Origin: a virus
Lineage: Duplodnaviria > Caudoviricetes
Strand: one strand, 5' to 3'
Virus record (IMG/VR): IMGVR_UViG_3300036783_000080
Coordinates: 32,001-96,000 of that record
Length of the DNA: 64,000 bases
Shown here one piece after another: positions 1-26,571 of the stretch (position 1 is its first letter; each line of letters starts with the position of its first letter). The position numbers and the translations under genes are program-made. The notes beneath the pieces are model-generated. The model searched no databases. It saw only the letters and a program-made list of their open reading frames with translations, and was not told where the DNA came from.

Positions 1-85
1 TATCACCCAGTTTCACTGCGACTGACAGCAAGCAAAGGTGTTTATCAAGCTCTTGACCTAAATCAGAAATATTACTCATTGACAT
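1..85 (-). CDS. Partial hypothetical protein (MSMSNISDLGQELDKHL...), runs off window start
   Basis: ATG at 85 with AAAGGAG RBS; frame open to window edge. Confidence 0.55.
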   Translation of the reverse strand, partial: MSMSNISDLGQELDKHLCLLSVAVKLGD

Positions 86-174
86 GCACTCCTTTCTGAG
101 AAGCTTCAATGAATAATGTAATATATGTATGTATGTCGTTATAAAATGAAAAAAGAGCTGGATTTCTCCAACTC

Positions 175-663
175 TCACCAAAATTTAAATATTTTCTTGA
201 CACTGTCAGGTATCTTTGGTATTGGGTCAACTTTATCTAATCGGACAAAATCCGTTAAAACTTTTGGATTATCTTTTGGAGCTTTCATAAAGTTCACGTG
301 CTCACCTACTCGCATTGAAGTATTTTTGGCCATTCTTCCAGTTCCAAAGACAACTCCACGTAAGCGGCTTGCAACTCCCTGAACCTTTTTATGGACTCTT
401 TCACGTTGGTCTTCGTTATTCCGATAGAAACCATCTATATCTCTTTCACGAAGCCGCTGGACTCTTGAAGAGTTTTGTACTGAACGCTTTTCGTCCTCAT
501 CGGTCTTCCTACGTTTTATTGGTTCTCTCTTCGTGCTCAATCCTTCTTTCTTTCTCAACGTTTCCCAAGCTTCACCCATATATTCATACGGTTTCCCTCC
601 ACGTTGTCTTGATAATTCATTCGCCAGTTTACAAACTTCAGAACGGTCTGCCACTGTGGTCAA
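175..663 (-). CDS. Hypothetical basic protein; N-terminal motif shared with 60700..61182
   Basis: AAAGGAG RBS; motif CKLANELSRQRGGKPYEYMGEAWETL. Confidence 0.75.
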   Translation of the reverse strand: MTTVADRSEVCKLANELSRQRGGKPYEYMGEAWETLRKKEGLSTKREPIKRRKTDEDEKRSVQNSSRVQRLRERDIDGFYRNNEDQRERVHKKVQGVASRLRGVVFGTGRMAKNTSMRVGEHVNFMKAPKDNPKVLTDFVRLDKVDPIPKIPDSVKKIFKFW

Positions 664-729
664 CTCCTTTATAATGGTTTTACATTATTAGCATATCCCA
701 CAGTTTGACTTTTTAGAACTAAAGAACGG

Positions 730-763
730 AAAAAAGCCACCCCAGAGCGGTAGGGTGGCTTTC
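730..763 (-). terminator. Intrinsic terminator downstream of holin
   Basis: GCCACCC/GGGTGGC stem followed by T-run on minus strand. Confidence 0.75.
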
Positions 764-867
764 TCACATAAGAGAGTTATAAAAATAATTAGCAACGGTT
801 AATCAACAATATAACTTTCTTACCAGATTATTTTAAAAGAGCGATTGGAAGAATGAGTAAGCGGAAT

Positions 868-1137
868 TTACTCAGGTTTTTTCAGCGTTAGGACTTCTGG
901 GTGGTCTGTCACGCCTTTTGTAGTTGGGTCTTGAACTAATCCTAAACTTGAGAAGATAACAAGCACAGCGTTGACTACAGTCAATACATAAGTGTTCACT
1001 TCTTCAGTCCATTGGAAGTCAGTTACACCAACCATGTTCAATCCAACTACAATAAGTTGAACCAACAGTAAGATTTGAGATACAAAAGATGTAACCCAAA
1101 GAGGATTTTGAAAACGAACTTTCCAGTTAATATTCAT
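868..1137 (-). CDS. Phage holin (phi LC3-like family)
   Basis: MNINWKVRFQNPLW start, two TM helices, LGLVQDPTTKG C-terminal signature; GAAGGGAGG RBS. Confidence 0.88.
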   Translation of the reverse strand: MNINWKVRFQNPLWVTSFVSQILLLVQLIVVGLNMVGVTDFQWTEEVNTYVLTVVNAVLVIFSSLGLVQDPTTKGVTDHPEVLTLKKPE

Positions 1138-1285
1138 TGTATATCCCTCCCTTCAAATAAGAATATCTCTTATTCTCCAGAAGATTATAAAAAGACAACA
1201 ACATGTTATAATTATTTTGGACATCTACACCACTAGAAGCAATCTTAAATTCACTTTTTATACTTAACTTAACGTGTATGAATCA

Positions 1286-1597
1286 TCAAGTATATTTTTT
1301 AGTATTCGCACGAATGTCTTCGTACTTTTTCCTTGTTGTCTCTCCGCCACGGATATGCTTATCAACTTGGCGAAATTCAAACTTGGAAACGATTTCATTA
1401 TATTCTTCAGGGTGTATATATTTAATAATTTGGTGGATATACAAGTGAACACTAGACTTGGTACGTCCAATTCTCTTTCCTGTTTGGACAAGCGTTAAAT
1501 CTTCTTCAAGTATCAAATTCATTGCCGTTATCGCAAGTGAAATTGTACTTTTAGAATGACTTTTGGGAAGCTTGTGTAGTTTTGGTAAACTTTTCAC
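1286..1597 (-). CDS. spoIIID: SpoIIID-like HTH sporulation transcription regulator
   Basis: HTH TLVQTGKRIGRTKSSVH, IHPEEYNEI and C-terminal HIRGGETTRKKY resemble B. subtilis SpoIIID (GVSKSTVH...INPDLANEV...HLRGGEATKLKY). Confidence 0.8.
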   Translation of the reverse strand: MKSLPKLHKLPKSHSKSTISLAITAMNLILEEDLTLVQTGKRIGRTKSSVHLYIHQIIKYIHPEEYNEIVSKFEFRQVDKHIRGGETTRKKYEDIRANTKKYT

Positions 1598-1632
1598 ATC
1601 TTTGTTTCTCTCCTCTCACTAACTGATTCTGT

Positions 1633-1665
1633 ATAATAAAACGTGGGTGTGCAAAAGTATACTCC
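1633..1665 (-). promoter_or_regulatory. Phage-type promoter motif GGAG..CTTTTG..TTTTATTAT upstream of spoIIID-like gene
   Basis: Same motif as 9941, 10760, 14568 etc., but without a strong hairpin. Confidence 0.5.
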
Positions 1666-1966
1666 TGGAAACATTACATATGAATTATATTATTTTAGCA
1701 AGGATATAATATATAGCACCTCTCTTAACCTATTAGCTTGAAATATGAGTTGTGAGATTGATTGACTAGTTGATTCTAAATCTCGTTTTGATAAATTATA
1801 CTCTTTACCCCTTAAACTGAAAAACTAATGTGAAATAAAAGCTTATACGTTTTGCGCAAGCAAAACATGCGTTAGCATTAACTATACCTTACTATTAATA
1901 TTACATTATTTATATTTTGTATGGGTCTGCATAAAAAATAATTTATTATTTTTTACTATACATAAC

Positions 1967-2028
1967 TATTCTTTATATTCTTTATGTACTTTATATTCTT
2001 TATATCTTTATGTTATTTATATTCTTTA
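1967..2028. repeat. Degenerate 9-bp tandem repeat TATTCTTTA x7 in an AT-rich spacer (origin-like)
   Basis: tattcttta tattcttta tgtacttta tattcttta tatcttta tgttattta tattcttta read directly. Confidence 0.8.
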
Positions 2029-2152
2029 TATTTAGCCCAAAAAACTATGCAACAGTCATACCCACATACGAACTCATGCTATGGGATTCCTACAGTCATA
2101 CTTTTTTGTAAAGAGAAAGAGCCGCTGAATTCATAGCAGCTCTCCCTGTATA

Positions 2153-2335
2153 TTACTTGAAAGACTCAACTTGACGTAGGTTAATCTGAAGTTTATTCTT
2201 CATAGCTTGGTCTTCATAAACTTCTAATACGCACATACCACCGCTTTTGTTTGAAGAGTTCACCCACGTTCTAATGTTTAATACAGGCTCTGCTGAGTAT
2301 ACTACCTTGCCTGTTGCTAATGTAATTGTAGTCAT
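2153..2335 (-). CDS. Small hypothetical protein
   Basis: AAAGGAGG RBS; terminator downstream. Confidence 0.7.
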   Translation of the reverse strand: MTTITLATGKVVYSAEPVLNIRTWVNSSNKSGGMCVLEVYEDQAMKNKLQINLRQVESFK

Positions 2336-2391
2336 ATAAAATTCCTCCTTTGTGGTTATACTTTAAAATATAAGAAAAGATGTGCAGAAAT

Positions 2392-4638
2392 TTAATCCTG
2401 CACACCGTTGAACAAAATATCTTTAATATCGCTTGAAGATAAGTTAGCACCGATTTCAGTGGAAGAGCCTGATGCGTTCTCTCCAAGAAGTTGGTCAATC
2501 ACTTGAGCCTTTTCTTGTACTTTTGCCATCTTAGTCACTTCAATCGTTCCAACCATTCTCGGTGATAAGAAAGTTGTGTATGGGTTTGGTTGACCATTAC
2601 GTGTGATACGTCCGCAACGTTGTACGTAACTTTTTGGCACCCAAGGAATATCAAGGTGAATCATTGTATGACCTCCATGTTGTAGGTTGATTCCCTCTTC
2701 TCCTGCGTTCGTACAAAGCATAACTCTGATTTTACCAGCGTTGTAAAGTTCCATCTGCTCAAAGCGGCTTTTCTCTTTCACTGAACCGTTTATCTCGCCA
2801 ATCTTAGCAGGATGGACTCCGTTTTTCACAAGGTGGTGTCTAAGTTTTTCTAGTGGGAGTTTCTTGTCACAAAAAATTATGATTCCTCTATTTTCCACAT
2901 CTTCAAGGTGAGCAAGAATCGTTTCCAAAGCCCACTCAACTTTCGGATATAATTTATCCATGTCAGCTTTATTTTTATCTTTTACTAAATCAAGGTCAAG
3001 AGCTACTTGCTCAAGTCGAGTTAACATTGCCAAGATATTTGGTGGAATAGAGTTTCCTGTAAGTTTCTGAACTTCGTTCTGAGCTTCCTTCAGTAAGGCG
3101 TTATAAAGTTTCTTCTGGTCTTTATCCATCGACAATTCAAATGTTGTATGACGTTCTTTAGGAAGTGCTGCTTCAACGTCTTTACTGCTATGAGTACGAA
3201 TCATAACAATTTCTTTCATCTTTTCACGAAGCTCTTTCAAGTCTTTAAATCCAACAGGAGATTCAATGTATTTAACGCCAGTCCATACGGTTTCTGTTTC
3301 AACGAAGTCTCTGCAGAAGTCCCACCAATGTCCAACTTTCTTTTCCTGTACGTTACTTAACATTGTGTGAGTTTCTTTTGGCTTACCATTAGGGAATGGA
3401 GTTGCTGTAAGAGACCAAGCATATTTAGCAGCTCCCCAGTACTGTCTGAACGCCTTCGTTGATTTCGTTGTGATACTTTTCAGCTTGTGTCCTTCATCAG
3501 TTATAATCAAATCAGGACAAAGCTTTACAAGTTCAGTTGCTATTTCATCTTTTCTAATCATCTCATAGTTTACAATCAGGAAAGAACTTTCAGCCGCCGC
3601 TTTCCAAGTCTTCTCTGCTTTCTTCCCTCTTAAATCTTCAGAGTTCATAACCAAAGCTGTTTCATCAGTGAACTTCGTGATTTCCTTTTCCCACCCACGC
3701 TTTACAGATTTTGGAGCGACAACAAGAACTTTCTTCACTTCACCTTTATTCAAAAGATACTTCGCTGCCGTGATAGCAGTTAATGTTTTACCTAAACCAA
3801 CCGCAAACCCAAGAATCGTTCTTCTGTTACTTAGAAGGAACTCAACGCCTGTTTTCTGATACTGGAATAAATTAAGTTCTTTTGACATACCTTTCGGCAT
3901 TTTGAATTTAACTTTCTCAACTTTGTACTTCATCTTTTCGGCTTTCGTGTTTATGTTCTCAAAGTTAATGTTTTCAAGAACTCGTTTCACCGCTGGTGCG
4001 ATAACTTTTGAAATCTCTATATTCTTGAATACTTTGAAAGCATCTAAAAGTTGACTGAATGGAATGTACCATTTCTTAGTTCCGTGATAGTCAAACCGTC
4101 CATTCAATAAATCTTTAACCAATCCTTTATCTTCAAACGCAACGTCAACCAAAATGTAATGGCCACCGTCCCATTGTTTCATATTGTCGATAAATAACAT
4201 TCTCATATATCCCGTAGCCGCTACAGGTTTGCCATATTGATTTATAGTTTGTTGAAATCCTTTTCCAATGACAATCGTGCCATCTGACTCTTCTTTATAA
4301 GTTCTTTCTACGTTTGTAAGAAAACTTTCCATTCTGCTTGTCGAGTTTTCAACCTCTGGAACTCTAATCTCATTTTTAACTTCTTCTACAGGTTGAGGTT
4401 TAAAGTCAACAGGAGACTCAAAACTAACAATGAAAACGTTTCCCTTTGATATATGTTTATTAATAGCCATTGCACATCTCATCCATTTAACTTTAAATGT
4501 TTCACTATCTTTCCAAGTTAACCCAGAATTAATCGCAATCGTCATTATTCGCTCTCTATCCTCTGTTTTTAACTTCTTACAGAACTGCTTAAATTCCTTA
4601 GTTGTATCAAACCGTTTTAAGCTTAGTGTTGAAATCAT
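2392..4638 (-). CDS. SNF2/SWI2-family SF2 helicase/translocase with N-terminal extension
   Basis: LFQYQKTGV, GLGKT (Walker A), DEGH (Walker B), LTATPFPN, GEEGINLQ, QRCGRITRNGQ motifs. Confidence 0.92.
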   Translation of the reverse strand: MISTLSLKRFDTTKEFKQFCKKLKTEDRERIMTIAINSGLTWKDSETFKVKWMRCAMAINKHISKGNVFIVSFESPVDFKPQPVEEVKNEIRVPEVENSTSRMESFLTNVERTYKEESDGTIVIGKGFQQTINQYGKPVAATGYMRMLFIDNMKQWDGGHYILVDVAFEDKGLVKDLLNGRFDYHGTKKWYIPFSQLLDAFKVFKNIEISKVIAPAVKRVLENINFENINTKAEKMKYKVEKVKFKMPKGMSKELNLFQYQKTGVEFLLSNRRTILGFAVGLGKTLTAITAAKYLLNKGEVKKVLVVAPKSVKRGWEKEITKFTDETALVMNSEDLRGKKAEKTWKAAAESSFLIVNYEMIRKDEIATELVKLCPDLIITDEGHKLKSITTKSTKAFRQYWGAAKYAWSLTATPFPNGKPKETHTMLSNVQEKKVGHWWDFCRDFVETETVWTGVKYIESPVGFKDLKELREKMKEIVMIRTHSSKDVEAALPKERHTTFELSMDKDQKKLYNALLKEAQNEVQKLTGNSIPPNILAMLTRLEQVALDLDLVKDKNKADMDKLYPKVEWALETILAHLEDVENRGIIIFCDKKLPLEKLRHHLVKNGVHPAKIGEINGSVKEKSRFEQMELYNAGKIRVMLCTNAGEEGINLQHGGHTMIHLDIPWVPKSYVQRCGRITRNGQPNPYTTFLSPRMVGTIEVTKMAKVQEKAQVIDQLLGENASGSSTEIGANLSSSDIKDILFNGVQD

Positions 4639-4738
4639 TTTTATAACTCCTTTCGCACTCTCTATTATTTATATTATCCTAAAACAAGAAAGGTTATTCT
4701 TGTTGATTATCTGTTGTCCGTTGTTAATGCTTATCCCT

Positions 4739-4767
4739 ATCATAGTAAAAGATATTCCAATAGTCAA
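4739..4767 (-). promoter_or_regulatory. SigA-type early promoter
   Basis: TTGACT(ATTGG)-17-TATGAT. Confidence 0.7.
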
Positions 4768-4802
4768 GAGAATATTACTAGAAAATAAAAAGAATCCCCA
4801 CT

Positions 4803-5318
4803 CTATGACAGGGATTCATGCAACTCTCTCGTTAACTGGCCAATCAAATCATCTGTAATCTCCAGCTTGTAGCCTTCTGTTTTGTCAACTTCTTTTTTCG
4901 GAACAGGTTTTTTCTTTGGTGTGGAATCCCCTACTTCTATGTAATCCCCTGTTTCCTCAATTTCAATATGAGCTTTTGGCAACCATCCCTCAAATTTAAC
5001 CTTACTCATTTTCTCTTTTAACTCTTCAACGAATGCTTCCAAGTCAGCTTCAGATTTTAACGGATTCATGTGGAAGTGTCCTCCGCAAACTGGACCAATT
5101 CCGTATAGTAAAGATACTGGGTTTGTAATTTGTCTCCCGCAGTGTAAACAAGATGACGCTGGTTCTGGCTTCCCTTGTAACTTGACATAGTACGCTCTTT
5201 CTGATTCTCTTTCAATGACGCCGAACATCGTGCGAAGTGGAACTGGGTTTGATTGACTCTTCGTCAAAAACTGTCTCACTGTGATTCGATATTCTTTTAC
5301 TCTCTCTATAACCGCCAT
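4803..5318 (-). CDS. DUF6011-like zinc-ribbon protein
   Basis: CLHCGRQITNPVSLLYGIGPVC signature. Confidence 0.75.
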   Translation of the reverse strand: MAVIERVKEYRITVRQFLTKSQSNPVPLRTMFGVIERESERAYYVKLQGKPEPASSCLHCGRQITNPVSLLYGIGPVCGGHFHMNPLKSEADLEAFVEELKEKMSKVKFEGWLPKAHIEIEETGDYIEVGDSTPKKKPVPKKEVDKTEGYKLEITDDLIGQLTRELHESLS

Positions 5319-5351
5319 ATTTTTATTCCCCTTTATTCAGTTGATAAGTAA

Positions 5352-5380
5352 ATCATAGTGGTTTCTTTACCAATAGTCAA
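5352..5380 (-). promoter_or_regulatory. SigA-type early promoter
   Basis: TTGACT(ATTGG)-17-TATGAT. Confidence 0.7.
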
Positions 5381-5589
5381 GAGGAAAATTTAAAATATTC
5401 ACAAGCCATCAATCTTTTGTGCAAGTCTTGGAGTTTTTCTTTGTGAAAATCAATATTCTTGTTATCCTTCTTCTCCATTGCTTTGTGTAGCTCTGAAAGA
5501 TGAGTATCAACATAAAACAGATATTGTGTCACTTGGTCTTCCACAATGTGAGTTGTTTTCATTAACCGATTGAAGTCACCAGCTTTCAT
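5377..5589 (-). CDS. Small helical hypothetical protein
   Basis: GGAGGTG RBS before ATG at 5589. Confidence 0.7.
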   Translation of the reverse strand: MKAGDFNRLMKTTHIVEDQVTQYLFYVDTHLSELHKAMEKKDNKNIDFHKEKLQDLHKRLMACEYFKFSS

Positions 5590-5714
5590 TTTTAACACCT
5601 CCAAGTTTATTTCCTAATAAAAGGATAATTGTTCAAAATATCTTCCTGGAAGTGTTAAGTTTTTAGAAAATTCTAAAATAAAAAGGCTGAGCAAGAGCGC
5701 CCAGCCTTGAGAAC

Positions 5715-5897
5715 TTACTTATTAATTTTGAATGTCCGACAATTTCTGTTATTCATTTTCACTTTTAATTTATATGAAGTCATATTGTTGCTGGCGTTCT
5801 GTTCATGCATTATCCCTGCTAACTGTTCTGCAATCTTTTCATTCGCCGCTACCATTCCAATCATATTTCCTTTAATCTCGGTTACAAATCTTTTCAT
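5715..5897 (-). CDS. Small hypothetical protein
   Basis: AAGGAGG RBS; terminator at ~5680-5707. Confidence 0.7.
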   Translation of the reverse strand: MKRFVTEIKGNMIGMVAANEKIAEQLAGIMHEQNASNNMTSYKLKVKMNNRNCRTFKINK

Positions 5898-6008
5898 TGT
5901 AATTCCTCCTTGGTGTTTGGTTTCTTGGTGTTTCTTTCTCTCTATGCTATAATATATGTATCAACGCTCTTGGTTAGAACTAAATAAAAAGAAAAGATGA
6001 GAATTTTC

Positions 6009-6245
6009 TCATCTTTCATAGAAGTGTATTTTCTTCCCAGTATCTGTCCCACAGTTGTAGTAATAGAACTCATTCAAGTATTTCTCCATCTTGTCAATGT
6101 CATTGAACTCAACGCTTGCGCACATGTTAAATGGAGTGTCATTAGGATAGAACTTGGATGGACAAACATAACCCAACCAAGTTTCACCTCTCTTTATTTT
6201 CGCTTTAATCTGTCCTTTTGTAACCTTCTTCAATGTTGTTGTCAT
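6009..6245 (-). CDS. Hypothetical protein
   Basis: ATGA overlap with upstream gene. Confidence 0.7.
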   Translation of the reverse strand: MTTTLKKVTKGQIKAKIKRGETWLGYVCPSKFYPNDTPFNMCASVEFNDIDKMEKYLNEFYYYNCGTDTGKKIHFYER

Positions 6246-7117
6246 CCTTCAATCTCTCCTTTCGGTGATTGGAACTGTTTGCCATTTTTGAATCCTTCTT
6301 GCGCAGCTTCTGCGTTTGTACTAACTTTTGCCGATGTAGTGGACTTCTTATTGAATGTCATACTTTCAAACGCTTCAACAACTTCAGAATCTTTCTGTAA
6401 CACAAGTCCCCATTCTTGGTTCTTCTCCTTCTGTTCTTCAAACGCCGCTCTTAATCCTTTGATGAAACCGTTGATGTAAGCATTTTTAACTGTTGTGTTG
6501 TTTACTTTCAGATTGAAAAGTTCTTTTACATACATTGTAAGCTGCATACGGTACGTTCTTGGCTCAGGGAACTTCAATTGTAGCTCTTTAATCTTGTTCT
6601 TACCAAATGTTCTCTTGTTAGAAGCAGTAAATTTAGTAACAACAAAATCTTCAAGTTCCTCTGTAGTCATTTTCTTCAGTTTGTCAACATCCAATCCAAC
6701 CTTCATAGCCGCTTCTTTCTTATGTTTTTCAAGGTACTTCTTGGACTGATATTCGATTGCTTTCTTTGCGTACTCATAAACAGATAATGCGATTGTTGTG
6801 TCTTCTTCTTTTCCTAAAAATACAATACGTTGTTTTCTTGTACCAGTTTCAAGATAAACATAGCAGCGGAAGTTTTCCCCTAATACTACAGCCAACTGTC
6901 CTGTCCACCATTTTGTAACTTCCATTTGAGTTCGGTTGTCAATAACTTTGTTTAATGTAGCTCCACCGTCAACGTCAGTCATTGACAACCCTTGTTCCGC
7001 CATTAGCTGTTGAGCTTTTAACATAGCCGCCTTTGCTTCCTGCTCGTTTGGGTTGTTCCCTGCTAATGCTAATAACTTCTTAATCCTTCTCATTGAACTC
7101 TCTTTTGCTTTTTCCAT
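6242..7117 (-). CDS. DUF2786-domain protein
   Basis: IKKLLALAGNNPNEQEAKAAMLKAQQLMAEQGL; start moved to ATG 7117 with AAGGAGCGG RBS. Confidence 0.85.
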   Translation of the reverse strand: MEKAKESSMRRIKKLLALAGNNPNEQEAKAAMLKAQQLMAEQGLSMTDVDGGATLNKVIDNRTQMEVTKWWTGQLAVVLGENFRCYVYLETGTRKQRIVFLGKEEDTTIALSVYEYAKKAIEYQSKKYLEKHKKEAAMKVGLDVDKLKKMTTEELEDFVVTKFTASNKRTFGKNKIKELQLKFPEPRTYRMQLTMYVKELFNLKVNNTTVKNAYINGFIKGLRAAFEEQKEKNQEWGLVLQKDSEVVEAFESMTFNKKSTTSAKVSTNAEAAQEGFKNGKQFQSPKGEIEG

Positions 7118-7120
7118 TTT

Positions 7121-7189
7121 AACCGCTCCTTTTTCCACTTGGTAATTGTCTTGCAAGTTAATCATAGTATAGTATACTCCAATAGTCAA
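7121..7189 (-). promoter_or_regulatory. SigA early promoter plus conserved leader
   Basis: TTGACTATTGG..17..TATGAT, then TAACTTGCAAGA..CCAAGTGGAAAAAGGAGCGGTT. Confidence 0.75.
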
Positions 7190-7192
7190 GGA

Positions 7193-7453
7193 TTATTCCA
7201 CAGAAATATTTTCTTCAACGATAATATTGTTTATATCAACGTATTCTTGTAAATAAATCATATTGGCCAGAATCTCATCAATCGTATCTACAAGTGTTTC
7301 ATACACTTCTCTCTGGTCAAGTTGGTATTGCGTTTCTAAAGGCTCTTGAAGATATAGAAGAAACAACTTTGTCAAAACAAACTTTCTAAGAGTTAACATC
7401 GTCAAAGCATAATCATCTTGAAATAAAAATAGGAACTTATCAGTTGAACGCAT
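7193..7453 (-). CDS. Hypothetical protein
   Basis: AAGGAGG RBS. Confidence 0.7.
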   Translation of the reverse strand: MRSTDKFLFLFQDDYALTMLTLRKFVLTKLFLLYLQEPLETQYQLDQREVYETLVDTIDEILANMIYLQEYVDINNIIVEENISVE

Positions 7454-7520
7454 AAATATCTCCTCCTTAATGGATTTAATAAATGATACGCTACTCTGAC
7501 AAGTCCCTATTCCTAATCAA

Positions 7521-7892
7521 TTATAATAACCATTTTCCAGTTGCAATAAAGGAGATAATCACCGCAGCAAGTTTTAAGATGTCGATGATGATTCCTCTCC
7601 ATCCTTGCTCCTTGTCTACCTTTTCCGCAATCTTTGAAACATCTTCTTTTAACTCACGTTGACTCTCCAAGAAGTTACTGAACATAATTTCGATTCTGTC
7701 ATTGAATGATGCAACTTCATCTACTTGTTCATTTAACTTCTCGAATTTGGTCTCAACCTTTTGTTGGAACTCTTTATGTTCCTTTTTGATTTCCTTGAAC
7801 CCTTCCTTCTGAGACTCTTTAATCTCATGAAGCTCTGTCTCTAATTGTTCAAGACGTTGATTAATAAGAGCAACGTTGAATTCTTCCCTCAT
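7521..7892 (-). CDS. Coiled-coil protein with C-terminal TM anchor
   Basis: Heptad-rich body, hydrophobic IIIDILKLAAVIISFIATGKWLL end. Confidence 0.75.
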   Translation of the reverse strand: MREEFNVALINQRLEQLETELHEIKESQKEGFKEIKKEHKEFQQKVETKFEKLNEQVDEVASFNDRIEIMFSNFLESQRELKEDVSKIAEKVDKEQGWRGIIIDILKLAAVIISFIATGKWLL

Positions 7893-8377
7893 GACAACTC
7901 ACCAACCTCTCTGAAAGCATAAAAAGCTTGTAGAGCAAACACGGCATAGATGACTGAGCTCATGTTCATGTTATTTGCTCCCAGTAAAAAGAAACCTGCT
8001 GAAATTGAAGAATAGACAATTGCACTGAACATTAAACTTCCTCTGCGTAGGTGTTTATGTCCTTTGAAGATACCATATAAGGATATTGTACCATTCAAAC
8101 CAAATAACGTTCCCCAATGGTAAGGCTCTGAGAATGACGCAAGCATATCTGGGAATGAATCCAGTGCGTTTGTCTTCGTAAACAGAACGGCAGCCGCCCA
8201 GAAGGAGATAATCACAAGACTCAATTCAAGTATAACAGATGCATTAACACGTTCTCTTTTTCTTGCTGCTGCAAATAGCTCTCGTTGTTGTTTTAACTCT
8301 TCAACTTCCATTTCTACTTTTTGTAGTTTCTTAATTACTTCTTTTTCTTCTGTTTTGTTACACATCTTATAACACAC
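7889..8377 (-). CDS. Multi-TM membrane protein
   Basis: About four hydrophobic segments; ATGA overlap with next gene. Confidence 0.75.
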   Translation of the reverse strand: MCYKMCNKTEEKEVIKKLQKVEMEVEELKQQRELFAAARKRERVNASVILELSLVIISFWAAAVLFTKTNALDSFPDMLASFSEPYHWGTLFGLNGTISLYGIFKGHKHLRRGSLMFSAIVYSSISAGFFLLGANNMNMSSVIYAVFALQAFYAFREVGELS

Positions 8378-8455
8378 CTTTCTGTTTAACGTAATTGCAA
8401 CTACAAAAAAGAATCCTACAAATCAGAATATTGTAGGATTCCAGTTGTGATAATA

Positions 8456-9436
8456 TTATGGTAAGAATTTAAATAAATCTGGGTTTGTAAGGATGTGAGT
8501 TATTTCATTGACTTGGTTATCTGTTATCTTTGTTCCAGCTGCTGGGGGATGTCCGCCACCACTCTCATGGAACATTTTCGCTACTTGTCCAAGGTCAATA
8601 TCAACAGCTTCACGTCTTCGCAAGCTCATTGTACCATAACCAATGTTAACCATAATGACAAAATCAATATCGCGATTCTCGTCACAAATTACATTACCCG
8701 TTTCTGAATGGTATGATTCGTTGAAGATAAGTCCAACATGATATTTATTGCCTTCAAGTTCAATGTCCATCTTTTTAAGTTCTTTAGACTTCTGTTTGAT
8801 ATGACGTTTAATACGTTTTTCTTCAAGTTCCAACAAACGCTGTTCTGTATGACTAAACTGAATATCTGGATTCTTCCAGAAACGTTCTTCAAAGTCCCAA
8901 AGTCCTACAATCTGAAGAAGGTCATTCAGTTGTTTGGCAACTTCGTTACCGTAAACATTTTTCCACTCCCAAGAATCGTACATGCGGACATGCTCAACGA
9001 ACTCTGCCAGGAAAGTATTGCTGCTTGCTTCGTCACTAGGGAACAAACTAATAAGAGTCTCATATAACAAGTTTGTTCCGCTTGTAATCTGATTTCTGTT
9101 TTCCTTATAGTTAGGTTGAACAGGAGTAACAGAAGCCCAATCATATTCGTTTAGCCATTCAGCGGTTTTGTGATGGTCAACTAACATGAACTTTGTAGCG
9201 GATTCAAATTCGATTAAGTCGGCCACTTCTTTATCAACAGAGATATCAGTTATGAATACTACGTCATAATTTTTGATTTCTCCTGATAAAATGAACTCTT
9301 TAACCTTCTCATTGATTTTCCCATAGGAACAATATTCAACATCTAACTGCTTTTGGAAGTAATGTCTTGCTACTATTGCACAACCAACTCCATCTAAGTC
9401 AGTGTGAGTAAATTGTTTAGCCTTGAATAATGTCAT
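8456..9436 (-). CDS. DHH/DHHA1 phosphoesterase (NrnB-like nanoRNase/oligonucleotide PDE)
   Basis: THTDLDG, ITDIS, VDHH, SLR, GGGHPPAAG motifs. Confidence 0.9.
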   Translation of the reverse strand: MTLFKAKQFTHTDLDGVGCAIVARHYFQKQLDVEYCSYGKINEKVKEFILSGEIKNYDVVFITDISVDKEVADLIEFESATKFMLVDHHKTAEWLNEYDWASVTPVQPNYKENRNQITSGTNLLYETLISLFPSDEASSNTFLAEFVEHVRMYDSWEWKNVYGNEVAKQLNDLLQIVGLWDFEERFWKNPDIQFSHTEQRLLELEEKRIKRHIKQKSKELKKMDIELEGNKYHVGLIFNESYHSETGNVICDENRDIDFVIMVNIGYGTMSLRRREAVDIDLGQVAKMFHESGGGHPPAAGTKITDNQVNEITHILTNPDLFKFLP

Positions 9437-9920
9437 TTTCTGATTCTCCTTGTCCGTTAATTGATTTCCAAATGTCTACTGCGTTGTATTGAGATTTTCT
9501 TGTAATCTCTTCGCCAAACCAAACAGGAGGTGTGAAATGTTCAGCTTCCTCTACTGTCTTAAATTCAACTTCAACTACAACAAGTGAAGTATCGTGGAAG
9601 AATCTATCAATTTCTGCAATCTTCCCATTCTCTAATTCAACCTCATACCTTACTTTCTCAAGAGGTTCATGTTGAGATAACTCAACCAGTCTGTTGTAAG
9701 TATGTTCAGTGATTGGAACTTCTGTTTCTCTTCGCTCCAACCCTTTGCCTCTTTTAACGGTTAAATTGTATTTAATAATAGCTCCAGAAACTGTCTTTCT
9801 GACACGAACTTCCTCAAACCCTGTAACGATGAACTGCTGGTTAATCAATTTAAATCTGACAGTGTCAACGCCTTCAGGAATCCCGTCAAGCTTGAAACGT
9901 CTTTCAATTTCTTTTCCCAT
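9417..9920 (-). CDS. CYTH (triphosphate tunnel metalloenzyme/class IV adenylate cyclase-like) protein
   Basis: EIERRF, RVRK, LTVK, RRETE, EKVRY, EID, VVEVEF, PVWFGEEIT. Confidence 0.9.
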   Translation of the reverse strand: MGKEIERRFKLDGIPEGVDTVRFKLINQQFIVTGFEEVRVRKTVSGAIIKYNLTVKRGKGLERRETEVPITEHTYNRLVELSQHEPLEKVRYEVELENGKIAEIDRFFHDTSLVVVEVEFKTVEEAEHFTPPVWFGEEITRKSQYNAVDIWKSINGQGESENDIIQG

Positions 9921-9940
9921 TCGTTCTACCACCTTTCAAC

Positions 9941-9973
9941 ATAATAAAAGGAGCGACTCATAAAAGTCACTCC
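9941..9973 (-). promoter_or_regulatory. Hairpin/promoter hybrid element
   Basis: GGAGTGAC-TTTTATGA-GTCGCTCC-TTTTATTAT; 26 bp identical to copies at 31239 and 56216. Confidence 0.65.
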
Positions 9974-10731
9974 TGAAGTTCACCTTGTCTATACAGTTTG
10001 TAATACTCTTTAGCCTTCTTTGTGAGTCTGGATATATGAGATTGACCAAATCCAACATAGTCCTCAATTTCTTGCTGCGTTTTACCCTGCGCACGTAGTT
10101 GTATAATAGGAATACATTTCTCATCATGTTTTTTAAGGATTCTCAGAAATCGTTGGAAATCGTCTGCGAACTCTAAGTCTTCATATTTCTGTTCATTGAA
10201 TCCAAATCCTTCATTAAGGTCGCACTCAACATCCCCGTCATTATTATATGAGAAGTCCATACTGAGCATGTTTTTAACTGTTTTATCGTATTCAAGAGCT
10301 TCCCTGACGTGGTTTTCCTTCTCTCCTAATTTAGAACATATTTCTTCAACAGGAGCATCAAGCAGAGCATTGGATGCTAATTTCACCCCAAGCTCTCTCA
10401 CTCTCCTTGGAACGTATATTCCATTATGTTGTGTTGCATTCAGATATGCCATCATATATCCGTTCATCATTCTATAAGCGTAACTTGAAAACTGAGCTTT
10501 TCTTCCATCTTTTTCGTGGTTAGGATTATATTTGTTATATGATTTTAAGAATGCTATTTGAGATTCTTGATATAGGTCGTCAAAAGTTAGTCCCAAAAAT
10601 TTGGCTGACTTTCTAAAACGATATGCGATTGAGTGTACCAATCTTTTGTGCTTTTTCAACACAACCTCAAAGTCCTCAAGATATTCATTATGTGGCTCAA
10701 GTGTCTTTCTTTCTTCCGCCGCTGCTCCCAT
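9967..10731 (-). CDS. Sigma-70 family RNA polymerase sigma factor, SigB/SigF/SigG-like
   Basis: Region 2 LVHSIAYRF..DDLYQESQIAFLKSYNKYNP..FSSYAY, IYVPRR, region 4 GKTQQEIEDYVGFGQSHISRL. Confidence 0.88.
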   Translation of the reverse strand: MGAAAEERKTLEPHNEYLEDFEVVLKKHKRLVHSIAYRFRKSAKFLGLTFDDLYQESQIAFLKSYNKYNPNHEKDGRKAQFSSYAYRMMNGYMMAYLNATQHNGIYVPRRVRELGVKLASNALLDAPVEEICSKLGEKENHVREALEYDKTVKNMLSMDFSYNNDGDVECDLNEGFGFNEQKYEDLEFADDFQRFLRILKKHDEKCIPIIQLRAQGKTQQEIEDYVGFGQSHISRLTKKAKEYYKLYRQGELQE

Positions 10732-10759
10732 TTCAACCTCTCCTTATCCAGTCTTTAAC

Positions 10760-10791
10760 TAAATAAAAGAAGGAGTGCAAAAGTTCACTCC
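10760..10791 (-). promoter_or_regulatory. Hairpin/promoter hybrid upstream of sigma factor
   Basis: GGGAGT-19-TTTATTT with internal CTTTTGC. Confidence 0.6.
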
Positions 10792-10797
10792 CATAAA

Positions 10798-12441
10798 TCA
10801 TATGAAATCCCAAGTAAATTCTGATTCTGATTGGAATGGATTTTTGAGCTTCTCTTTACCAATTAAGCAATAAACAAGCGCAGAAGATAAATGGTCATCC
10901 CCAACCCTTGTCGCAATTTGATAAAATTCTTGTGTTTCTTCGTTTTCTTCATCCATGACTCGCACATTCTTGACGTGCTTCGTGAACATTGAAAGCTTTT
11001 CTTCCATTCTCCAATATCCAATTTGTCTTCCTTTGATAGCGTGAAGCATACGTTGAACCGCTAATGTTTTATCAACTGTAACCACTCTTGTTGAGTCATT
11101 CCATCTGTTAATAGGCTGCGAAGCTCCTTTGAATGTTTGATACTTACAAGCCCAAACTCGTCCCTTGAATAACTGCATTAAGTAAGCATTTCTGTCAGCC
11201 CCGTACCCAAAGTCACAGACAATTAAATCTGGGTCATAAGGCGTTATAGTAGCCGCTAACATTTTTACAGGCTCTAATGGAACAGTAGGATTGTCTTTGA
11301 ACCAGAATACGTTTAGAAGGTCTGTTTGACCATCCTCTTTAATTCCGATAACGCAGCACCAGTTCGTTAGTCCCCAGTCAATTCCAACTACAATTCTAGC
11401 ATATCCCAGGCGAGCATTGATAGGGTTATCAAAGCGTTGAGCTGCTAAGATATCATCATCATTAATGATTAACCCTGTAGCTGCATAAGGCTCTCCAATA
11501 ACGTAGTTGTAATATAACTGTTTCGATTGATATTTGAACTGTCGTCTCATTATGTCATCGGCACTAATCCAAACAGCATTCAACTGAGATATGTGATATC
11601 CTCTCATATGCTTGCGGTCTGGGTGTTTAGCAACCCAATGGCCATTATACCATCTGTCAAGGGCAGCACCACACTTAGCACATGCAAACTCAAACGTACC
11701 ATCTTCAACTTCCTCTGTAACGTAGTTAATACCATTTGGCTTTAACTGTCTGATGTTATCTTCTACAGATAGAGTCTGATAATGATTACATTTCTCACAC
11801 TTATGCATATAAAAATTTTGGTCAGTCTTCGCAAACTGCTTATTTACACCACGTCCAGGGATTGTAGGCGTTGACCATCTTCTCAAACGTCCATAAGCTG
11901 AAGACTTCATACCTTCTTGGAAGGCTAGTTCAACGTTGTCCTGCATACGGTCATATTCATCGAACGCAAGAAAGTCAATATCCGCACCCTCACCCAGTGC
12001 TCCGCCCCAAGCAGAACGGAAAAGCAAGAATGATTCCCTTATCTTTTTAACCTCTAATGAGTCCATACCTTTATCACGAATTGAGTTGAAGTACGGGTTA
12101 CTGTCAAGTACGGGATTGAAACGGGTTTTAACAAAGTCAGTCAGCTGTCTGTTACGTGGAAACGTGTACATGAGCTTAACATGGTTCTTTGTATCAGCAA
12201 AGTGCAAGGCTTCTGCTACGCCCATTTCTGAAAGTCCTAACTGACGTGATTTCTGTACAATCTTATCTTCGTGTATATCGTTGATGATTTTCTCCTGCCA
12301 CGGTCTATGAGCACGTGCTCTTGCTTCGTTTCTATCGGCTATATGAAATGTAAGCGGCTTCCCACGGATTGTATAGTATTCAAGTAAGTAAAGGGAAGGC
12401 GTTTCACGAATCAACTGTTTTATGAGTTGTGATGGTTTCAT
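10798..12441 (-). CDS. terL: Phage terminase large subunit (GpA-like, SPO1/Twort type)
   Basis: HRPWQ, KSRQLGLSE Walker A, FDEYDRM Walker B, STPTIPG, CEKC/CAKC, VGIDWG nuclease, DDHL; start at 12441 with AAGGAGG RBS. Confidence 0.93.
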   Translation of the reverse strand: MKPSQLIKQLIRETPSLYLLEYYTIRGKPLTFHIADRNEARARAHRPWQEKIINDIHEDKIVQKSRQLGLSEMGVAEALHFADTKNHVKLMYTFPRNRQLTDFVKTRFNPVLDSNPYFNSIRDKGMDSLEVKKIRESFLLFRSAWGGALGEGADIDFLAFDEYDRMQDNVELAFQEGMKSSAYGRLRRWSTPTIPGRGVNKQFAKTDQNFYMHKCEKCNHYQTLSVEDNIRQLKPNGINYVTEEVEDGTFEFACAKCGAALDRWYNGHWVAKHPDRKHMRGYHISQLNAVWISADDIMRRQFKYQSKQLYYNYVIGEPYAATGLIINDDDILAAQRFDNPINARLGYARIVVGIDWGLTNWCCVIGIKEDGQTDLLNVFWFKDNPTVPLEPVKMLAATITPYDPDLIVCDFGYGADRNAYLMQLFKGRVWACKYQTFKGASQPINRWNDSTRVVTVDKTLAVQRMLHAIKGRQIGYWRMEEKLSMFTKHVKNVRVMDEENEETQEFYQIATRVGDDHLSSALVYCLIGKEKLKNPFQSESEFTWDFI

Positions 12442-12539
12442 ATTTCTCTCCTCCTTGTATATACAATAACAATCCATAATATGTATGAAGTTTTTTATAA
12501 AAGAAAAGACGCACACTATTGTGTACGCCTTTAGAATGG

Positions 12540-12797
12540 TTATTTGATTATAAGACCTAGTTGACTTGCTCTGTTTAAAGCGTCAACATAAGCTCGGTGT
12601 TCAGCTGTAGGCTGATGATAGTTCGCTGCCACTTCGTCAACGTGACGTCCTGTAACTTCGTATGTTTTGACATTGTCTGACATAATTAAGTTACAAGAAG
12701 TAATTTTGTGAGTAAATTGTTTTGGATGTACGTAAGCTACTGGAACTGACGTTACAACAAACGCTTTACTTTTTAAATCAACAGGAATACGTTTCAT
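12540..12797 (-). CDS. Hypothetical protein between terS-like gene and terL
   Basis: GAGAGGTG RBS before ATG 12797. Confidence 0.65.
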   Translation of the reverse strand: MKRIPVDLKSKAFVVTSVPVAYVHPKQFTHKITSCNLIMSDNVKTYEVTGRHVDEVAANYHQPTAEHRAYVDALNRASQLGLIIK

Positions 12798-14542: not shown

Positions 14543-14567
14543 TTTAAATCCCCTTTCAGTTTTATAC

Positions 14568-14600
14568 ATAATAAAAGGAGCATCCTGTAAAGGATACTCC
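14568..14600 (-). promoter_or_regulatory. Hairpin/promoter hybrid element
   Basis: GGAGTATCC-TTTACA-GGATGCTCC-TTTTATTATGT; near-identical to 16560. Confidence 0.65.
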
Positions 14601-14606
14601 TGAGAA

Positions 14607-14897
14607 TCACTTGTTTTTATTCTTTTGGTACCACCGTGCTATAAATAATATGGATACAAGGTAAACGTATGCCATAAAATCGCTTGACATAACAACCAAC
14701 TTTTGTAGTGATAGTGTGGTCATCGCATAGGAATAAGTCGCATAATCAACGTTCACTCCATCCCATTTATTTACTTCCATGTTGTATCCCGTCACCTTAA
14801 AGAATACTAATGCCAAGAAGAATAAACTAAGTAGGGTGATAGATAGCATGAATTTCTTGTCATCTATCACAACCTTTCTAAATAATTTCATTTTCAC
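14607..14897 (-). CDS. Small membrane protein
   Basis: Two hydrophobic segments; AAGGAG RBS. Confidence 0.65.
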   Translation of the reverse strand: MKMKLFRKVVIDDKKFMLSITLLSLFFLALVFFKVTGYNMEVNKWDGVNVDYATYSYAMTTLSLQKLVVMSSDFMAYVYLVSILFIARWYQKNKNK

Positions 14898-17307: not shown

Positions 17308-17336
17308 TTATATCCCTCTCTTCAAATCATTTTCAC

Positions 17337-17369
17337 ATAATAAAAGGAGCAACTTGTAAAAGTTACTCC
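17337..17369 (-). promoter_or_regulatory. Hairpin/promoter hybrid element
   Basis: GGAGTAACT-TTTACA-AGTTGCTCC-TTTTATTATGT. Confidence 0.65.
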
Positions 17370-17379
17370 CATAAAACAC

Positions 17380-26226: not shown

Positions 26227-26571
26227 TCAGGCTCTCCTTCTTTCCAACTCTTTACACACATTCATCTTCATCTTTATATGAGGGTTACTAACCAATTCTT
26301 TTTCCGTATGATTATCATCTTTGAACAACCTCCCATATTTATGTTCGTAGTATAGAAAGAACGGTAATGAAGCAACAATCCCTAAAACGAGTGTTCCGCA
26401 AGCTATAAGGAGAAAATTGATAGACAGTTCTCCCAGGCTGTTCGTATACCACCAGAATCCTTCTGTAAAGAATCCTTTTGATAAATACGTCAAGAGAGGA
26501 AATGTCACCGCTCCTGCGCCAAATAGAACACTTAAACTCAACGCTTGTAACTTTGTTTCTTTATCCATCAT
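26227..26571 (-). CDS. Membrane protein
   Basis: Two TM segments; GGGAGG RBS. Confidence 0.65.
   Translation of the reverse strand: MMDKETKLQALSLSVLFGAGAVTFPLLTYLSKGFFTEGFWWYTNSLGELSINFLLIACGTLVLGIVASLPFFLYYEHKYGRLFKDDNHTEKELVSNPHIKMKMNVCKELERRRA

Follow-up and report, generated by a model that had tools for sequence, protein, structure and literature searches.

A 64,000-nucleotide stretch of phage DNA, referred to here as the window, carries two genes that resemble sporulation regulators, one SpoIIID-like and one encoding a sigma factor, each behind the same promoter-like motif (Table 1). The first-pass annotation read them as a coordinated sporulation kit, and the question is whether the two genes act together on host sporulation or serve the programme of the phage itself.

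The phage was initially described as Herelleviridae-like, and this was confirmed by its 90% identity to Bacillus phage Nachito across window positions 1-12600; it is a strictly lytic, SPO1-like, Nachito-type member of the Spounavirinae (Herelleviridae) of the Bacillus cereus group. It encodes three sigma factors, namely a gp28 homolog (34.6% identity to SPO1 gp28), the pan-Herelleviridae sigma, and the SigB/F/G-type protein, hereafter the third sigma. The gp28 homolog would serve the middle genes, and the pan-Herelleviridae sigma, taken as gp34-like, the late genes. Compared with their Nachito counterparts, both genes show purifying selection, with dN/dS values of 0.21 (SpoIIID-like gene) and 0.09 (sigma gene). 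A Nachito-like phage genome was also found co-assembled with a B. paranthracis isolate. Near the sigma gene, the start of the DHH/DHHA1 phosphoesterase gene overlaps the end of the gene preceding it.

Table 1. Features of the locus, in window coordinates
Feature	Position	Strand	Basis and remarks
G+C-rich hairpin AGCCACCC...GGGTGGCT followed by a T-run	728..762	-	Read directly from the sequence, no tool score
Holin (Phage_holin_1)	868..1137	-	Pfam PF04531, 67.7 bits
SpoIIID-family HTH DNA-binding protein (by homology)	1286..1597	-	103 aa, GTG start; family, PDB and fold matches
Middle-promoter-like motif GGAGT-N19-TTTTATT	1635..1665	-	Sequence and motif scans; before the SpoIIID-like gene
SNF2-type helicase	2392..4638	-	Pfam SNF2-rel_dom, 119.6 bits; upstream of the SpoIIID-like gene
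DHH/DHHA1 phosphoesterase	8456..9436	-	Pfam DHH and DHHA1; PHROG DHH phosphoesterase; context only
Post-sigma gene	9417..9932	-	phrog_6660; Nachito annotation triphosphate tunnel metalloenzyme; context only
Sigma-70 family protein, SigB/F/G type	9967..10731	-	254 aa; family, host match, tree, synteny
Middle-promoter-like motif GGAGT-N18-TTTTATT	10762..10791	-	Sequence and motif scans; before the sigma gene
Large terminase subunit	10798..12516	-	Pfam GpA_ATPase; phrog_675, 631 bits; directly upstream of the sigma gene

The SpoIIID-like protein and its relatives

The family-profile searches proposed with the first-pass annotation upheld the family assignments of both genes, with 44.6 bits (E 1.6e-11) against Pfam SpoIIID PF12116, above the cut-off of 27, for the SpoIIID homolog, and 35.1 bits against Pfam Sigma70_r2 for the sigma. 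In PHROG, the former is assigned to phrog_11726, 'sporulation stage III protein D', and it scores 35 bits against the NCBIfam equivalog TIGR02844, whose cut-off is 111.5. Its best sequence match in the PDB is B. subtilis SpoIIID (2L0K, E 3.5e-6), which is likewise the top Foldseek match (probability 1.00, TM 0.60/0.66) of the AlphaFold model (pLDDT 86.9).

Compared with SpoIIID (2L0K; PF12116, TIGR02844), the phage protein is equally small and has an identical helix order, with helices predicted at residues 16-32, 36-43, 47-61 and 63-102, the third being the recognition helix (KSSVHLYIH) and the fourth containing the basic tail. Aligned to 2L0K, KSSVH corresponds to KSTVH of B. subtilis and the C-terminal HIRGGETTRKKY to HLRGGEATKLKY, and, just as the preserved HTH and tail had suggested at first sight, the K-S-x-V-H helix and the H-x-R-G-G-x-x-T-x-x-K-Y tail keep the family-wide gap of 34 residues between K-S-x-V-H and H-x-R-G-G. 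All family-invariant residues are retained (K47, S48, H51, H81, R83, G84, G85, T88 and K91), given which the protein might still bind host SpoIIID sites. However, its identity to the host B. thuringiensis SpoIIID is 34%, and, unlike the latter, it bears a 13-residue N-terminal extension, while its recognition helix continues with L-Y-I-H in place of the canonical K-D-L-T. The N-terminal 25 codons alone have a dN/dS of ~0.2 against Nachito, which favours the long form of the ORF.

To our knowledge, SpoIIID is a narrow family known from endospore formers only. Among 1.84 billion representative proteins, only 85 matched the phage protein at E <= 1e-3, each with at most 40% identity. The nearest relatives carry K-S-x-V-H-x-Y-I-H, whereas canonical SpoIIID has K-S-T-V-H-K-D, and they cluster with the window protein, with weak support in a poorly resolved family tree (84 columns; SH-aLRT <95 on most branches). 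Wherever the genomic context of such a relative is informative, it is phage-like. In one of these contexts the SpoIIID-like gene is followed by a holin, an ORF and a GH25 endolysin, the whole preceded by an AGGAGT-N18-TTTATTT motif; in two others (P0005 and P0006) it stands between a helicase and a DNA polymerase A; a further one contains DNA ligase, ThyX and dUTPase, and yet another a run of small ORFs. The order of helicase and then SpoIIID-like gene repeats in unrelated phage contigs, as it does with the SNF2-type helicase of the window. At IMG/VR loci the family neighbours thymidine kinase, ribonucleotide reductase, DnaB-primase and SbcCD-like genes, and in YungSlug the order is SpoIIID-like, endolysin, holin.

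In the window, 148 nt separate the SpoIIID-like gene from the downstream holin gene, and the spacer, read directly, contains no G+C-rich terminator; the two genes are probably transcribed together, with the holin second, in a unit that the G+C-rich hairpin beyond it, a putative terminator, likely ends. Thus placed beside a holin in a lytic phage, behind a middle-type motif, the gene differs from host spoIIID, which is chromosomal and under sigma-E control. Phage homologs of spoIIID and sigF/G are known kinds of genes (PHROG 11726; Schwartz 2022, 2023), and the window gene is of the same kind as the catalogued SpoIIID homologs (PHROG 11726, K06283, and WP_270363940.1, an 87% identical protein from a 149-kb Nachito-like contig that PGAP names 'sporulation transcriptional regulator SpoIIID'). 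What is new in relation to these is the altered recognition helix in the nearest, mostly phage-borne relatives, together with the recurring neighbourhoods (holin/endolysin; helicase plus polymerase) and the middle-type promoter motif.

A divergent third sigma

The assignment of the sigma to the SigB/F/G type stands: in addition to the Pfam match to Sigma70_r2, its best NCBIfam model is TIGR02980 (SigB/F/G), at 80 bits, far under the cut-off of 234. The initial label 'SigF/G-like', however, was too specific. Searched against a B. thuringiensis genome, the protein scores highest with host SigB (45.6 bits), ahead of SigG (41.8) and SigF (32.7), the identity to the three being 26-30%; the best equivalog model in NCBIfam is that of SigB, not SigF or SigG; the SigB-length 8x6g_H ranks above SigF 1L0O in the PDB; and in a small tree the protein occupies a very long branch outside SigF/G. 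SigF and SigG are thus not nearer to it than SigB is.

Like SP10 g120 and SPO1 gp2.21, whose positional counterpart it is, the third sigma is encoded downstream of the large terminase, the order terminase and then sigma being common to the three phages, with one additional gene in between in SPO1. It shares with both the SigB/F/G-type class and the three-sigma layout with gp28 and gp34 counterparts, and its best pairwise match is SP10 g120 (33% identity); it is nevertheless very divergent, and resembles SPO1 gp2.21 only marginally (E 0.07, confined to region 4). Published work on these 'sporulation-like' sigmas found SP10 g120 dispensable: its deletion left virulence unchanged, and its induction altered the expression of <50 host genes, with spore yield unaffected. 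SPO1 gp2.21 is likewise non-essential (Schwartz et al. 2022, PMC9429907). With Eldridge g169 and the Fah/Wbeta-type SigF mimics the window protein has in common that they are group-3 sigmas of spore-former phages, found by the same searches. However, Eldridge g169 shares 62% identity with SigF and recapitulates its regulon (PMC9429907), whereas the window sigma has low identity to all three host factors and lies off the SigF/G branch.

The shared promoter-like motif

The same phage-type motif does precede both genes, as first noticed, running from 1665 to 1635 and from 10791 to 10762. In the genome, GGAG[AT]-N17-19-TTTTATT has 12 copies on the minus strand and 0 on the plus strand, against a shuffle mean of 0.07, and all 12 lie on the coding strand. 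The copy before the SpoIIID-like gene forms no hairpin (-2.8 to -3 kcal/mol, z 0.03) and is followed after ~35 nt by an RBS (GAGGAGAG) and the GTG start; Nachito retains it with a single change, in the T-rich block.

SPO1 gp28 middle promoters reportedly have the consensus AGGAGA / TTTNTTT. In SPO1, AGGAGA-N17-18-TTTNTTT occurs four times, on the forward strand only, and one of these sites immediately precedes gene 27, for which transcription from early and middle promoters was reported (PMC13401047). The window phage resembles this system in the two-block pattern, the spacing, the coding-strand copies just before genes and the encoded gp28 homolog, but its downstream block is longer and more uniform (TTTTATTATGT), and about a third of its copies double as terminator hairpins. 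Since the motif fits the gp28 pattern and the phage encodes a gp28 homolog, we infer that it marks a temporal class rather than a tie between the two genes; and since it fronts at least 10 genes besides them, it does not couple them.

What the two genes may do

We propose, with a probability of about 45%, that the two genes do not form a coordinated sporulation kit but serve the programme of the phage itself as accessory regulators, each independently of the other. The host RNA polymerase with the gp28 homolog would read the GGAG[AT]-N17-19-TTTTATT middle promoter before at least 10 genes, in units that appear to include the sigma gene and the two-gene unit of the SpoIIID-like gene and the holin. 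Since the SpoIIID-like protein retains the HTH and the H-x-RGG basic helix, it would bind DNA as a monomer through both, like SpoIIID, and may tune the transcription of phage units, for example the lysis or replication modules that adjoin its relatives. The third sigma would displace the host sigma on the core polymerase; as has been suggested for SPO1 gp2.21, it probably recognizes a limited number of phage promoters that are not essential. Against this proposal count the search of the phage genome, in which neither the SpoIIID consensus nor the k-mer analysis for the sigma pointed to a phage target, the family-invariant residues that the SpoIIID-like protein keeps, the poor resolution of the family tree and the link of the family to endospore formers and their phages. 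This proposal draws on homology, fold, synteny, motif statistics and purifying selection; within it we infer the DNA-binding mode, the targets, the promoter class and the holin co-transcription, the latter two, and the timing, from motifs alone.

It is rather doubtful that the two genes, acting independently, are directed at host sporulation, with its forespore and mother-cell programmes, as the first-pass annotation suggested. The SpoIIID-like protein would then sit on the SpoIIID sites of a host that is infected while sporulating and mis-time the sigma-E to sigma-K mother-cell programme, so that spore maturation is blocked or phage entrapment favoured, while the sigma would partly mis-express the SigB/F/G regulons. 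In B. subtilis, prolonged SpoIIID activity leads to defective spores, and a SpoIIID mimic could therefore be disruptive; the phage protein belongs to the family and keeps the DNA-contact-type residues. Additionally, spoIIID (KEGG K06283) is listed among the regulators enriched in spore-former phages (Schwartz et al. 2023, PMC10294663), a finding no less in keeping with a host-directed role than with a phage-directed one. Spore yield is lowered by some phage SigF/G-like sigmas, Eldridge g169 and Goe3 g157 (PMC9429907), and the co-assembly with B. paranthracis would agree with the phage being carried in cultures or spores. However, both proteins are very far from the host genes, and in published work function tends to follow similarity, the syntenic SP10 g120, the most divergent sigma tested, being without effect (PMC9429907). 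The C-terminal half of the recognition helix is non-canonical, and a phage middle promoter, not a sporulation promoter, appears to drive both genes in any infected cell. In this analysis no tie of either gene to sporulation control was found. Across the phage genome the SpoIIID-box consensus is not enriched, and sporulation-type (sigma-E, F, G, K) promoters occur at chance level upstream of genes.

A truly cooperating pair, in which the SpoIIID-like protein co-regulates the third sigma, as SpoIIID does with sigma-E/sigma-K, at dedicated phage or host promoters, is improbable. In its favour, both genes trace back to sporulation regulators, persist in Nachito under purifying selection and share a promoter-type motif, but this motif is common to at least 10 unrelated genes, the two genes lie 8.4 kb apart in separate units, and SP10 and SPO1 both have the sigma without a SpoIIID homolog detectable by tblastn, which leaves the coordinated kit of the first-pass annotation weak. 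Moreover, many other phage contexts contain a SpoIIID-like gene with no sigma seen in the flanks examined, and no candidate common promoter class was found, nor did a third promoter class for the sigma emerge from k-mer analysis.

There is equally little to be said for the motif being an intrinsic terminator family only, with transcription reaching both genes from promoters further upstream. Hairpins of 7 to 13 bp with a U-run (-10 to -19.7 kcal/mol) do form at 4-5 of the 12 copies, one of which, at window 26237, has no gene start after it. Yet 7 of the 12, the SpoIIID-like gene's included, do not fold (-1.6 to -5.1 kcal/mol) but retain GGAG[AT], a spacing of 17-19 nt and TTTTATTATGT, 22-36 nt ahead of an RBS and start codon, and the two blocks are those of the SPO1 gp28 consensus. 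The copy before the sigma gene folds, after the terminase gene, as a 7-bp hairpin with a U-run (-10 kcal/mol, z -3.1), and may be terminator and promoter at once. The gene directly after the sigma has its own motif copy, from 9973, with a hairpin of -17.2 kcal/mol.

Identity of the SpoIIID-like protein

The phage had been described in the first-pass annotation as Herelleviridae-like, with one of its genes encoding a SpoIIID homolog that keeps the helix-turn-helix (HTH) and the basic tail, and both descriptions hold. The window covers bases 32001-96000 of a 150,650-bp IMG/VR record rated complete by CheckV, and across positions 1-12600 it shares its gene order and 90% DNA identity with Bacillus phage Nachito (OP380492; Herelleviridae, Spounavirinae), whose host is Bacillus sp. 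ET1. The 103-aa SpoIIID-like protein matches Pfam PF12116 at 44.6 bits (gathering cut-off 27 bits; E 1.6e-11; profile positions 8-80 of 82) as well as phrog_11726, 'sporulation stage III protein D', and among PDB sequences it comes closest to B. subtilis SpoIIID (2L0K), with which it aligns in the recognition helix as well as in the H-x-RGG...KY tail. The AlphaFold model, built on 32 relatives, reaches a pLDDT of 86.9, and a Foldseek search with it also ranks 2L0K first (probability 1.00, TM 0.60/0.66), but at an E of only 0.02. KSSVH at residue 47 is followed 34 residues on by HIRGGETT, the distance that separates K-S-x-V-H from H-x-R-G-G with few exceptions in family members where both motifs were found, and the near-invariant family residues are all retained. 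The gene is under purifying selection (dN/dS 0.21 against Nachito), and the originally annotated long form with its GTG start is the right one, given that this bias extends to the 25 N-terminal codons and that helix 1 of the model runs across the alternative internal ATG.

The equivalog model for bona fide SpoIIID, TIGR02844, gives the protein 35.1 bits, below its cut-off of 111.5, and identity to B. thuringiensis SpoIIID is 34%. Bona fide SpoIIID is chromosomally encoded with a sigma-E-type promoter in the mother cell, whereas the SpoIIID-like gene lies on a virus record of 150.6 kb with a phage middle-type motif upstream.

Features around the SpoIIID-like and sigma genes, in minus-strand order from terminase to holin, followed by related genes outside the window
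Feature	Position	Strand	Remark
Large terminase	10798..12516	-	
Third sigma	9967..10731	-	254 aa
TTM-like gene	9417..9932	-	
DHH phosphoesterase	8456..9436	-	
Small membrane and unknown genes		-	between DHH phosphoesterase and SNF2 helicase
SNF2 helicase	2392..4638	-	
Small ORF	2153..2335	-	
Spacer	1598-2152		555 bp, between small ORF and SpoIIID-like gene
SpoIIID-like gene	1286..1597	-	103 aa
Holin	868..1137	-	
Pan-Herelleviridae sigma	98436-99086 of whole record		216 aa; phrog_1025; common to Staphylococcus, Enterococcus and Lactobacillus Herelleviridae
HNH/AP2-like ORF	112631-113341 of whole record		236 aa; HNH/AP2-like N-terminal part, HTH repeats, weak sigma region-4 match
gp28 homolog	118623-119366 of whole record		247 aa; 34.6% identity to SPO1 gp28, E 2e-27

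The spacer upstream of the SpoIIID-like gene contains few ORFs and is 91% identical to Nachito, being conserved like the flanking genes. It carries a tandem array of about seven copies of a 9-bp unit, TAAAGAATA (minus strand), at 1967-2032 and a fair sigma-70-like site, TTTTCA-17-TATAAT, at 1823->1795, and an Rfam search of the window, spacer included, gave no match. The spacer could be a protein-binding-site array, an origin-like element or an untranslated RNA.

As annotation, the two genes are confirmed. Phage SigF/G-like sigmas and phage spoIIID homologs have already been catalogued (PHROG 11726; PMC9429907; PMC10294663), and a B. paranthracis assembly includes a 149-kb Nachito-like contig whose 87%-identical protein (P0001, WP_270363940.1) already has the PGAP name 'SpoIIID'. 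This work adds the altered recognition helix in the nearest, mostly phage-borne relatives of the SpoIIID-like protein, the recurrent holin and replication-module neighbourhoods of such genes, and the middle-promoter class; it also identifies the sigma as the positional counterpart of g120 and gp2.21. The B. paranthracis contig itself (149,255 bp, RefSeq) is a nearly complete Nachito-like phage genome, indicating that a lytic-type phage travelled with the bacterial isolate, which could reflect a carrier state, pseudolysogeny or spore entrapment.

Relatives and their gene neighbourhoods

An exhaustive search of 1.84 billion representatives returned only 85 relatives at E <= 1e-3, none exceeding 40% identity. 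The recognition helix reads K-S-T-V-H-K-D-[VLI]-[TS] in canonical SpoIIID members and K-S-x-V-H-x-Y-I-H in the SpoIIID-like protein and its nearest relatives, which cluster together with weak support in a quick, poorly resolved tree. Where the genomic contexts of these nearest relatives can be read, they are phage-like. In the metagenomic phage encoding P0003, the SpoIIID-like gene has in front of it AGGAGT-N18-TTTATTT, a motif of the promoter type seen in the present phage, and is followed by a holin, an ORF and a GH25/LysM endolysin; the genes of P0005 and P0006 stand between a helicase and DNA polymerase A; that of P0047 adjoins DNA ligase, ThyX and dUTPase; and that of P0028 lies in a run of small ORFs. 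The gene for P0008, a canonical-type relative, is on a bacterial chromosome. Additionally, family members at 16 IMG/VR loci, many of them on 80- to 250-kb contigs, have thymidine kinase, ribonucleotide reductase, DnaB-primase and SbcCD-like genes as neighbours. A homolog search based on words and an IMG/VR scan with a single protein recovered near-identical Nachito-type copies only. In the present phage, the SpoIIID-like gene and the holin probably constitute one middle transcription unit, judging from the strong hairpin and T-run after the holin and the absence of a G+C-rich terminator between them.

Among 50,697 phage records searched by tblastn, a SpoIIID homolog was detectable only in Nachito and YungSlug, besides three unannotated 'Bacteriophage sp.' contigs (three of the five matches). 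Two of these three, the GenBank entries MT836459.1 and MT838654.1, labelled 'UNVERIFIED Bacteriophage sp.' from human faeces, carry a canonical spoIIID (140 bits) and were rejected as phage spoIIID, since their neighbours, GMP synthase, MatE, ABC-transporter and MarR genes, mark them as fragments of bacterial chromosomes; such fragments inflate counts of 'phage' spoIIID. A further subgroup of phage SpoIIID-like proteins (L123-L132), encoded on IMG/VR contigs of 80-162 kb that come mostly from sample 3300045988, follows DnaB helicase and primase; it keeps the HTH sequence P-K-S-T-V-H-x-Y-I-H and has the H-x-RGG tail swapped for a different basic, Cys/Trp-containing end.

The third sigma factor and possible targets of the two regulators

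The sigma gene had been called both SigB/F/G-type and SigF/G-like. Its product contains Sigma70 region 2, passes the sigma-70 superfamily model TIGR02937 (62.3 bits against a cut-off of 42.9), and has as its best NCBIfam model TIGR02980 (SigB/F/G), though at 80 bits against a cut-off of 234 (positions 8-218 of 227). The cut-offs of the SigF (TIGR02885, 54.6 against 321 bits) and SigG (TIGR02850, 47.1 against 457 bits) models are failed, and the SigB model scores it at 68.2 bits, above those of SigF (about 55) and SigG (47-49). On the B. thuringiensis chromosome it matches SigB, SigG, SigF and SigE at 45.6, 41.8, 32.7 and 17.2 bits, respectively (identities confirmed with NCBIfam); in the PDB, the 256-aa sigma 8x6g_H outscores SigF 1L0O; and in a ten-sequence tree it shares a very long branch with its Nachito counterpart, apart from the SigF/G pair. 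Therefore, from the NCBIfam ranking, the host matches, the PDB search and the tree, SigB/F/G-type appears to be the apt designation, whereas SigF/G-like finds no specific support.

The terminase is followed by the g120 sigma and, further on, a helicase in SP10, and by a ParB-like gene and then the gp2.21 sigma in SPO1, and by this terminase-sigma order the window sigma corresponds in position to the third, sporulation-like sigma of the Spounavirinae; as there, its gene comes after that of the large terminase, and the genome also encodes gp28- and gp34-type sigmas, the pan-Herelleviridae sigma being taken to be gp34-like. The 236-aa HNH/AP2-like ORF is probably a homing endonuclease and not a fourth sigma. 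The window sigma is as divergent as SP10 g120, with which it has its best pairwise score (33% identity) and a tree grouping that has 33% branch support and joins long branches; its match to SPO1 gp2.21 has an E of 0.07. No partner anti-sigma kinase of the SpoIIAB/RsbW type was found beside it, the neighbours being the large terminase, the TTM-like protein and the DHH phosphoesterase. The genes of the latter two, TTM/CYTH-like and DHH/DHHA1 phosphoesterase, come immediately after the sigma, with a 20-nt overlap between them and a middle motif of their own; as a pair they might break down nucleotide second messengers or nanoRNAs.

Homology, fold, synteny, motif statistics and purifying selection are established, and for function we propose, with a probability of about 45%, that the SpoIIID-like protein and the third sigma would act as independent regulators of the phage programme. 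If so, the SpoIIID fold would also be that of a phage transcription-factor family, which bears on the origin of SpoIIID. Scans of the phage genome, which do not extend to host targets, found the SpoIIID box WWRRACARNY not enriched in the 150.6 kb (173 against 183 +/- 16 in shuffles) and the sigma-G, F, B and E promoter patterns at chance level, with none upstream of genes; a single GTATA-N17-CATAATA is no more than chance predicts (6 against 4.1), and a k-mer search of 75 upstream regions yielded only early-promoter and ribosome-binding-site (RBS) words and no third promoter class. Two apparent excesses were rejected, GGACAAG (33 against 19) as SpoIIID sites because nearly all are in-frame sense GGA-CAA-G codons, and sigma-K-type sequences (25 against 10) because they are the reverse complement of conserved sigma-A early promoter units. 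These units, at window positions about 25683, 26141, 27214, 32645, 34273 and 40738, consist of CACTTGACT-N17-TATATT/TATAAT and, behind it, a conserved leader of ~30 nt containing CTTGTAAGATAGTTCTTACA, and since their reverse complement resembles AC-N16-17-CATA---TA, they could mislead promoter scans.

Copies of sporulation regulators are known in phages of spore formers, of which, to our knowledge, few sigma factors and no SpoIIID have been tested. An independent, host-directed manipulation of sporulation by the two genes is a rival reading that we consider possible but rather doubtful. In its favour, outside phages the SpoIIID family is, as far as we know, restricted to endospore formers, and spoIIID is one of the regulators that Schwartz et al. 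(2023) give as enriched in phages of spore formers (PMC10294663). The sigma comes with a sobering control, as its nearest tested counterpart leaves sporulation unaffected: in SP10, which has middle, late and third sigmas, deletion of g120 left virulence unchanged, and induction of g120 in B. subtilis altered <50 genes without changing spore yield (PMC9429907). Moreover, SPO1 gp2.21 is non-essential and a proposed reader of phage promoters, and the effect of phage sigmas on sporulation tracks their similarity to SigF/G (PMC9429907). Were the SpoIIID-like protein host-directed, it would provide the first demonstrated case of a phage factor aimed at mother-cell gene expression. The system is tractable, as Nachito, a close relative, is isolated and strictly lytic, and both regulator types occur in this phage.

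It is quite unlikely that the SpoIIID-like gene and the holin form a conserved 'decision' operon, in which a SpoIIID mimic would sense or overrule the sigma-E/sigma-K state of the mother cell in a host caught in sporulation and tie the timing of lysis to it, possibly with the sigma as its polymerase partner, so that spore maturation would be shut down or lysis delayed and the genome trapped in the spore. Adjacency to lysis genes in three lineages sharing <= 37% identity (this phage and Nachito; YungSlug, with the order SpoIIID-like gene, endolysin, holin; and the P0003 phage) is compatible with such an operon.

The shared promoter-like motif

That both genes sit behind the same phage-type promoter motif had been noted before; the motif is real, and what falls away is a private link between the two. 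GGAGT-N18/19-TTTTATT lies upstream of each. The genome has 12 copies of the general form GGAG[AT]-N17-19-TTTTATT, every one of them on the minus (coding) strand; dinucleotide shuffles yield 0.07. Standing before at least 10 genes, it would mark a temporal class, and a true cooperating pair of SpoIIID-like protein and third sigma is very unlikely.

The middle-promoter consensus of SPO1 gp28 has the same two-block pattern. The SPO1 genome contains four copies of that consensus, on the forward strand only, one of them just upstream of gene 27, for which a middle promoter has been reported (PMC13401047). With its two blocks, its restriction to the coding strand, the RBS and start codon that come after most copies and a gp28 homolog encoded in the same genome, the motif fits a gp28-type middle promoter. 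A function as terminator only, suggested by the terminator-like look of the four or five copies that form a 7- to 13-bp hairpin followed by a U-run, is improbable, as 7 of the 12, that of the SpoIIID-like gene included, do not fold, retain both blocks, the spacing and the extended TTTTATTATGT, and lie 22-36 nt ahead of an RBS and start codon. The copies at 9936-9980, 14563-14607 and 17332-17376 form perfect 11-bp hairpins followed by UUUUAUUAU (-14 to -17 kcal/mol); hairpin-forming copies look like composite terminator-promoter elements between genes, and the one at 26237 looks like a terminator only.
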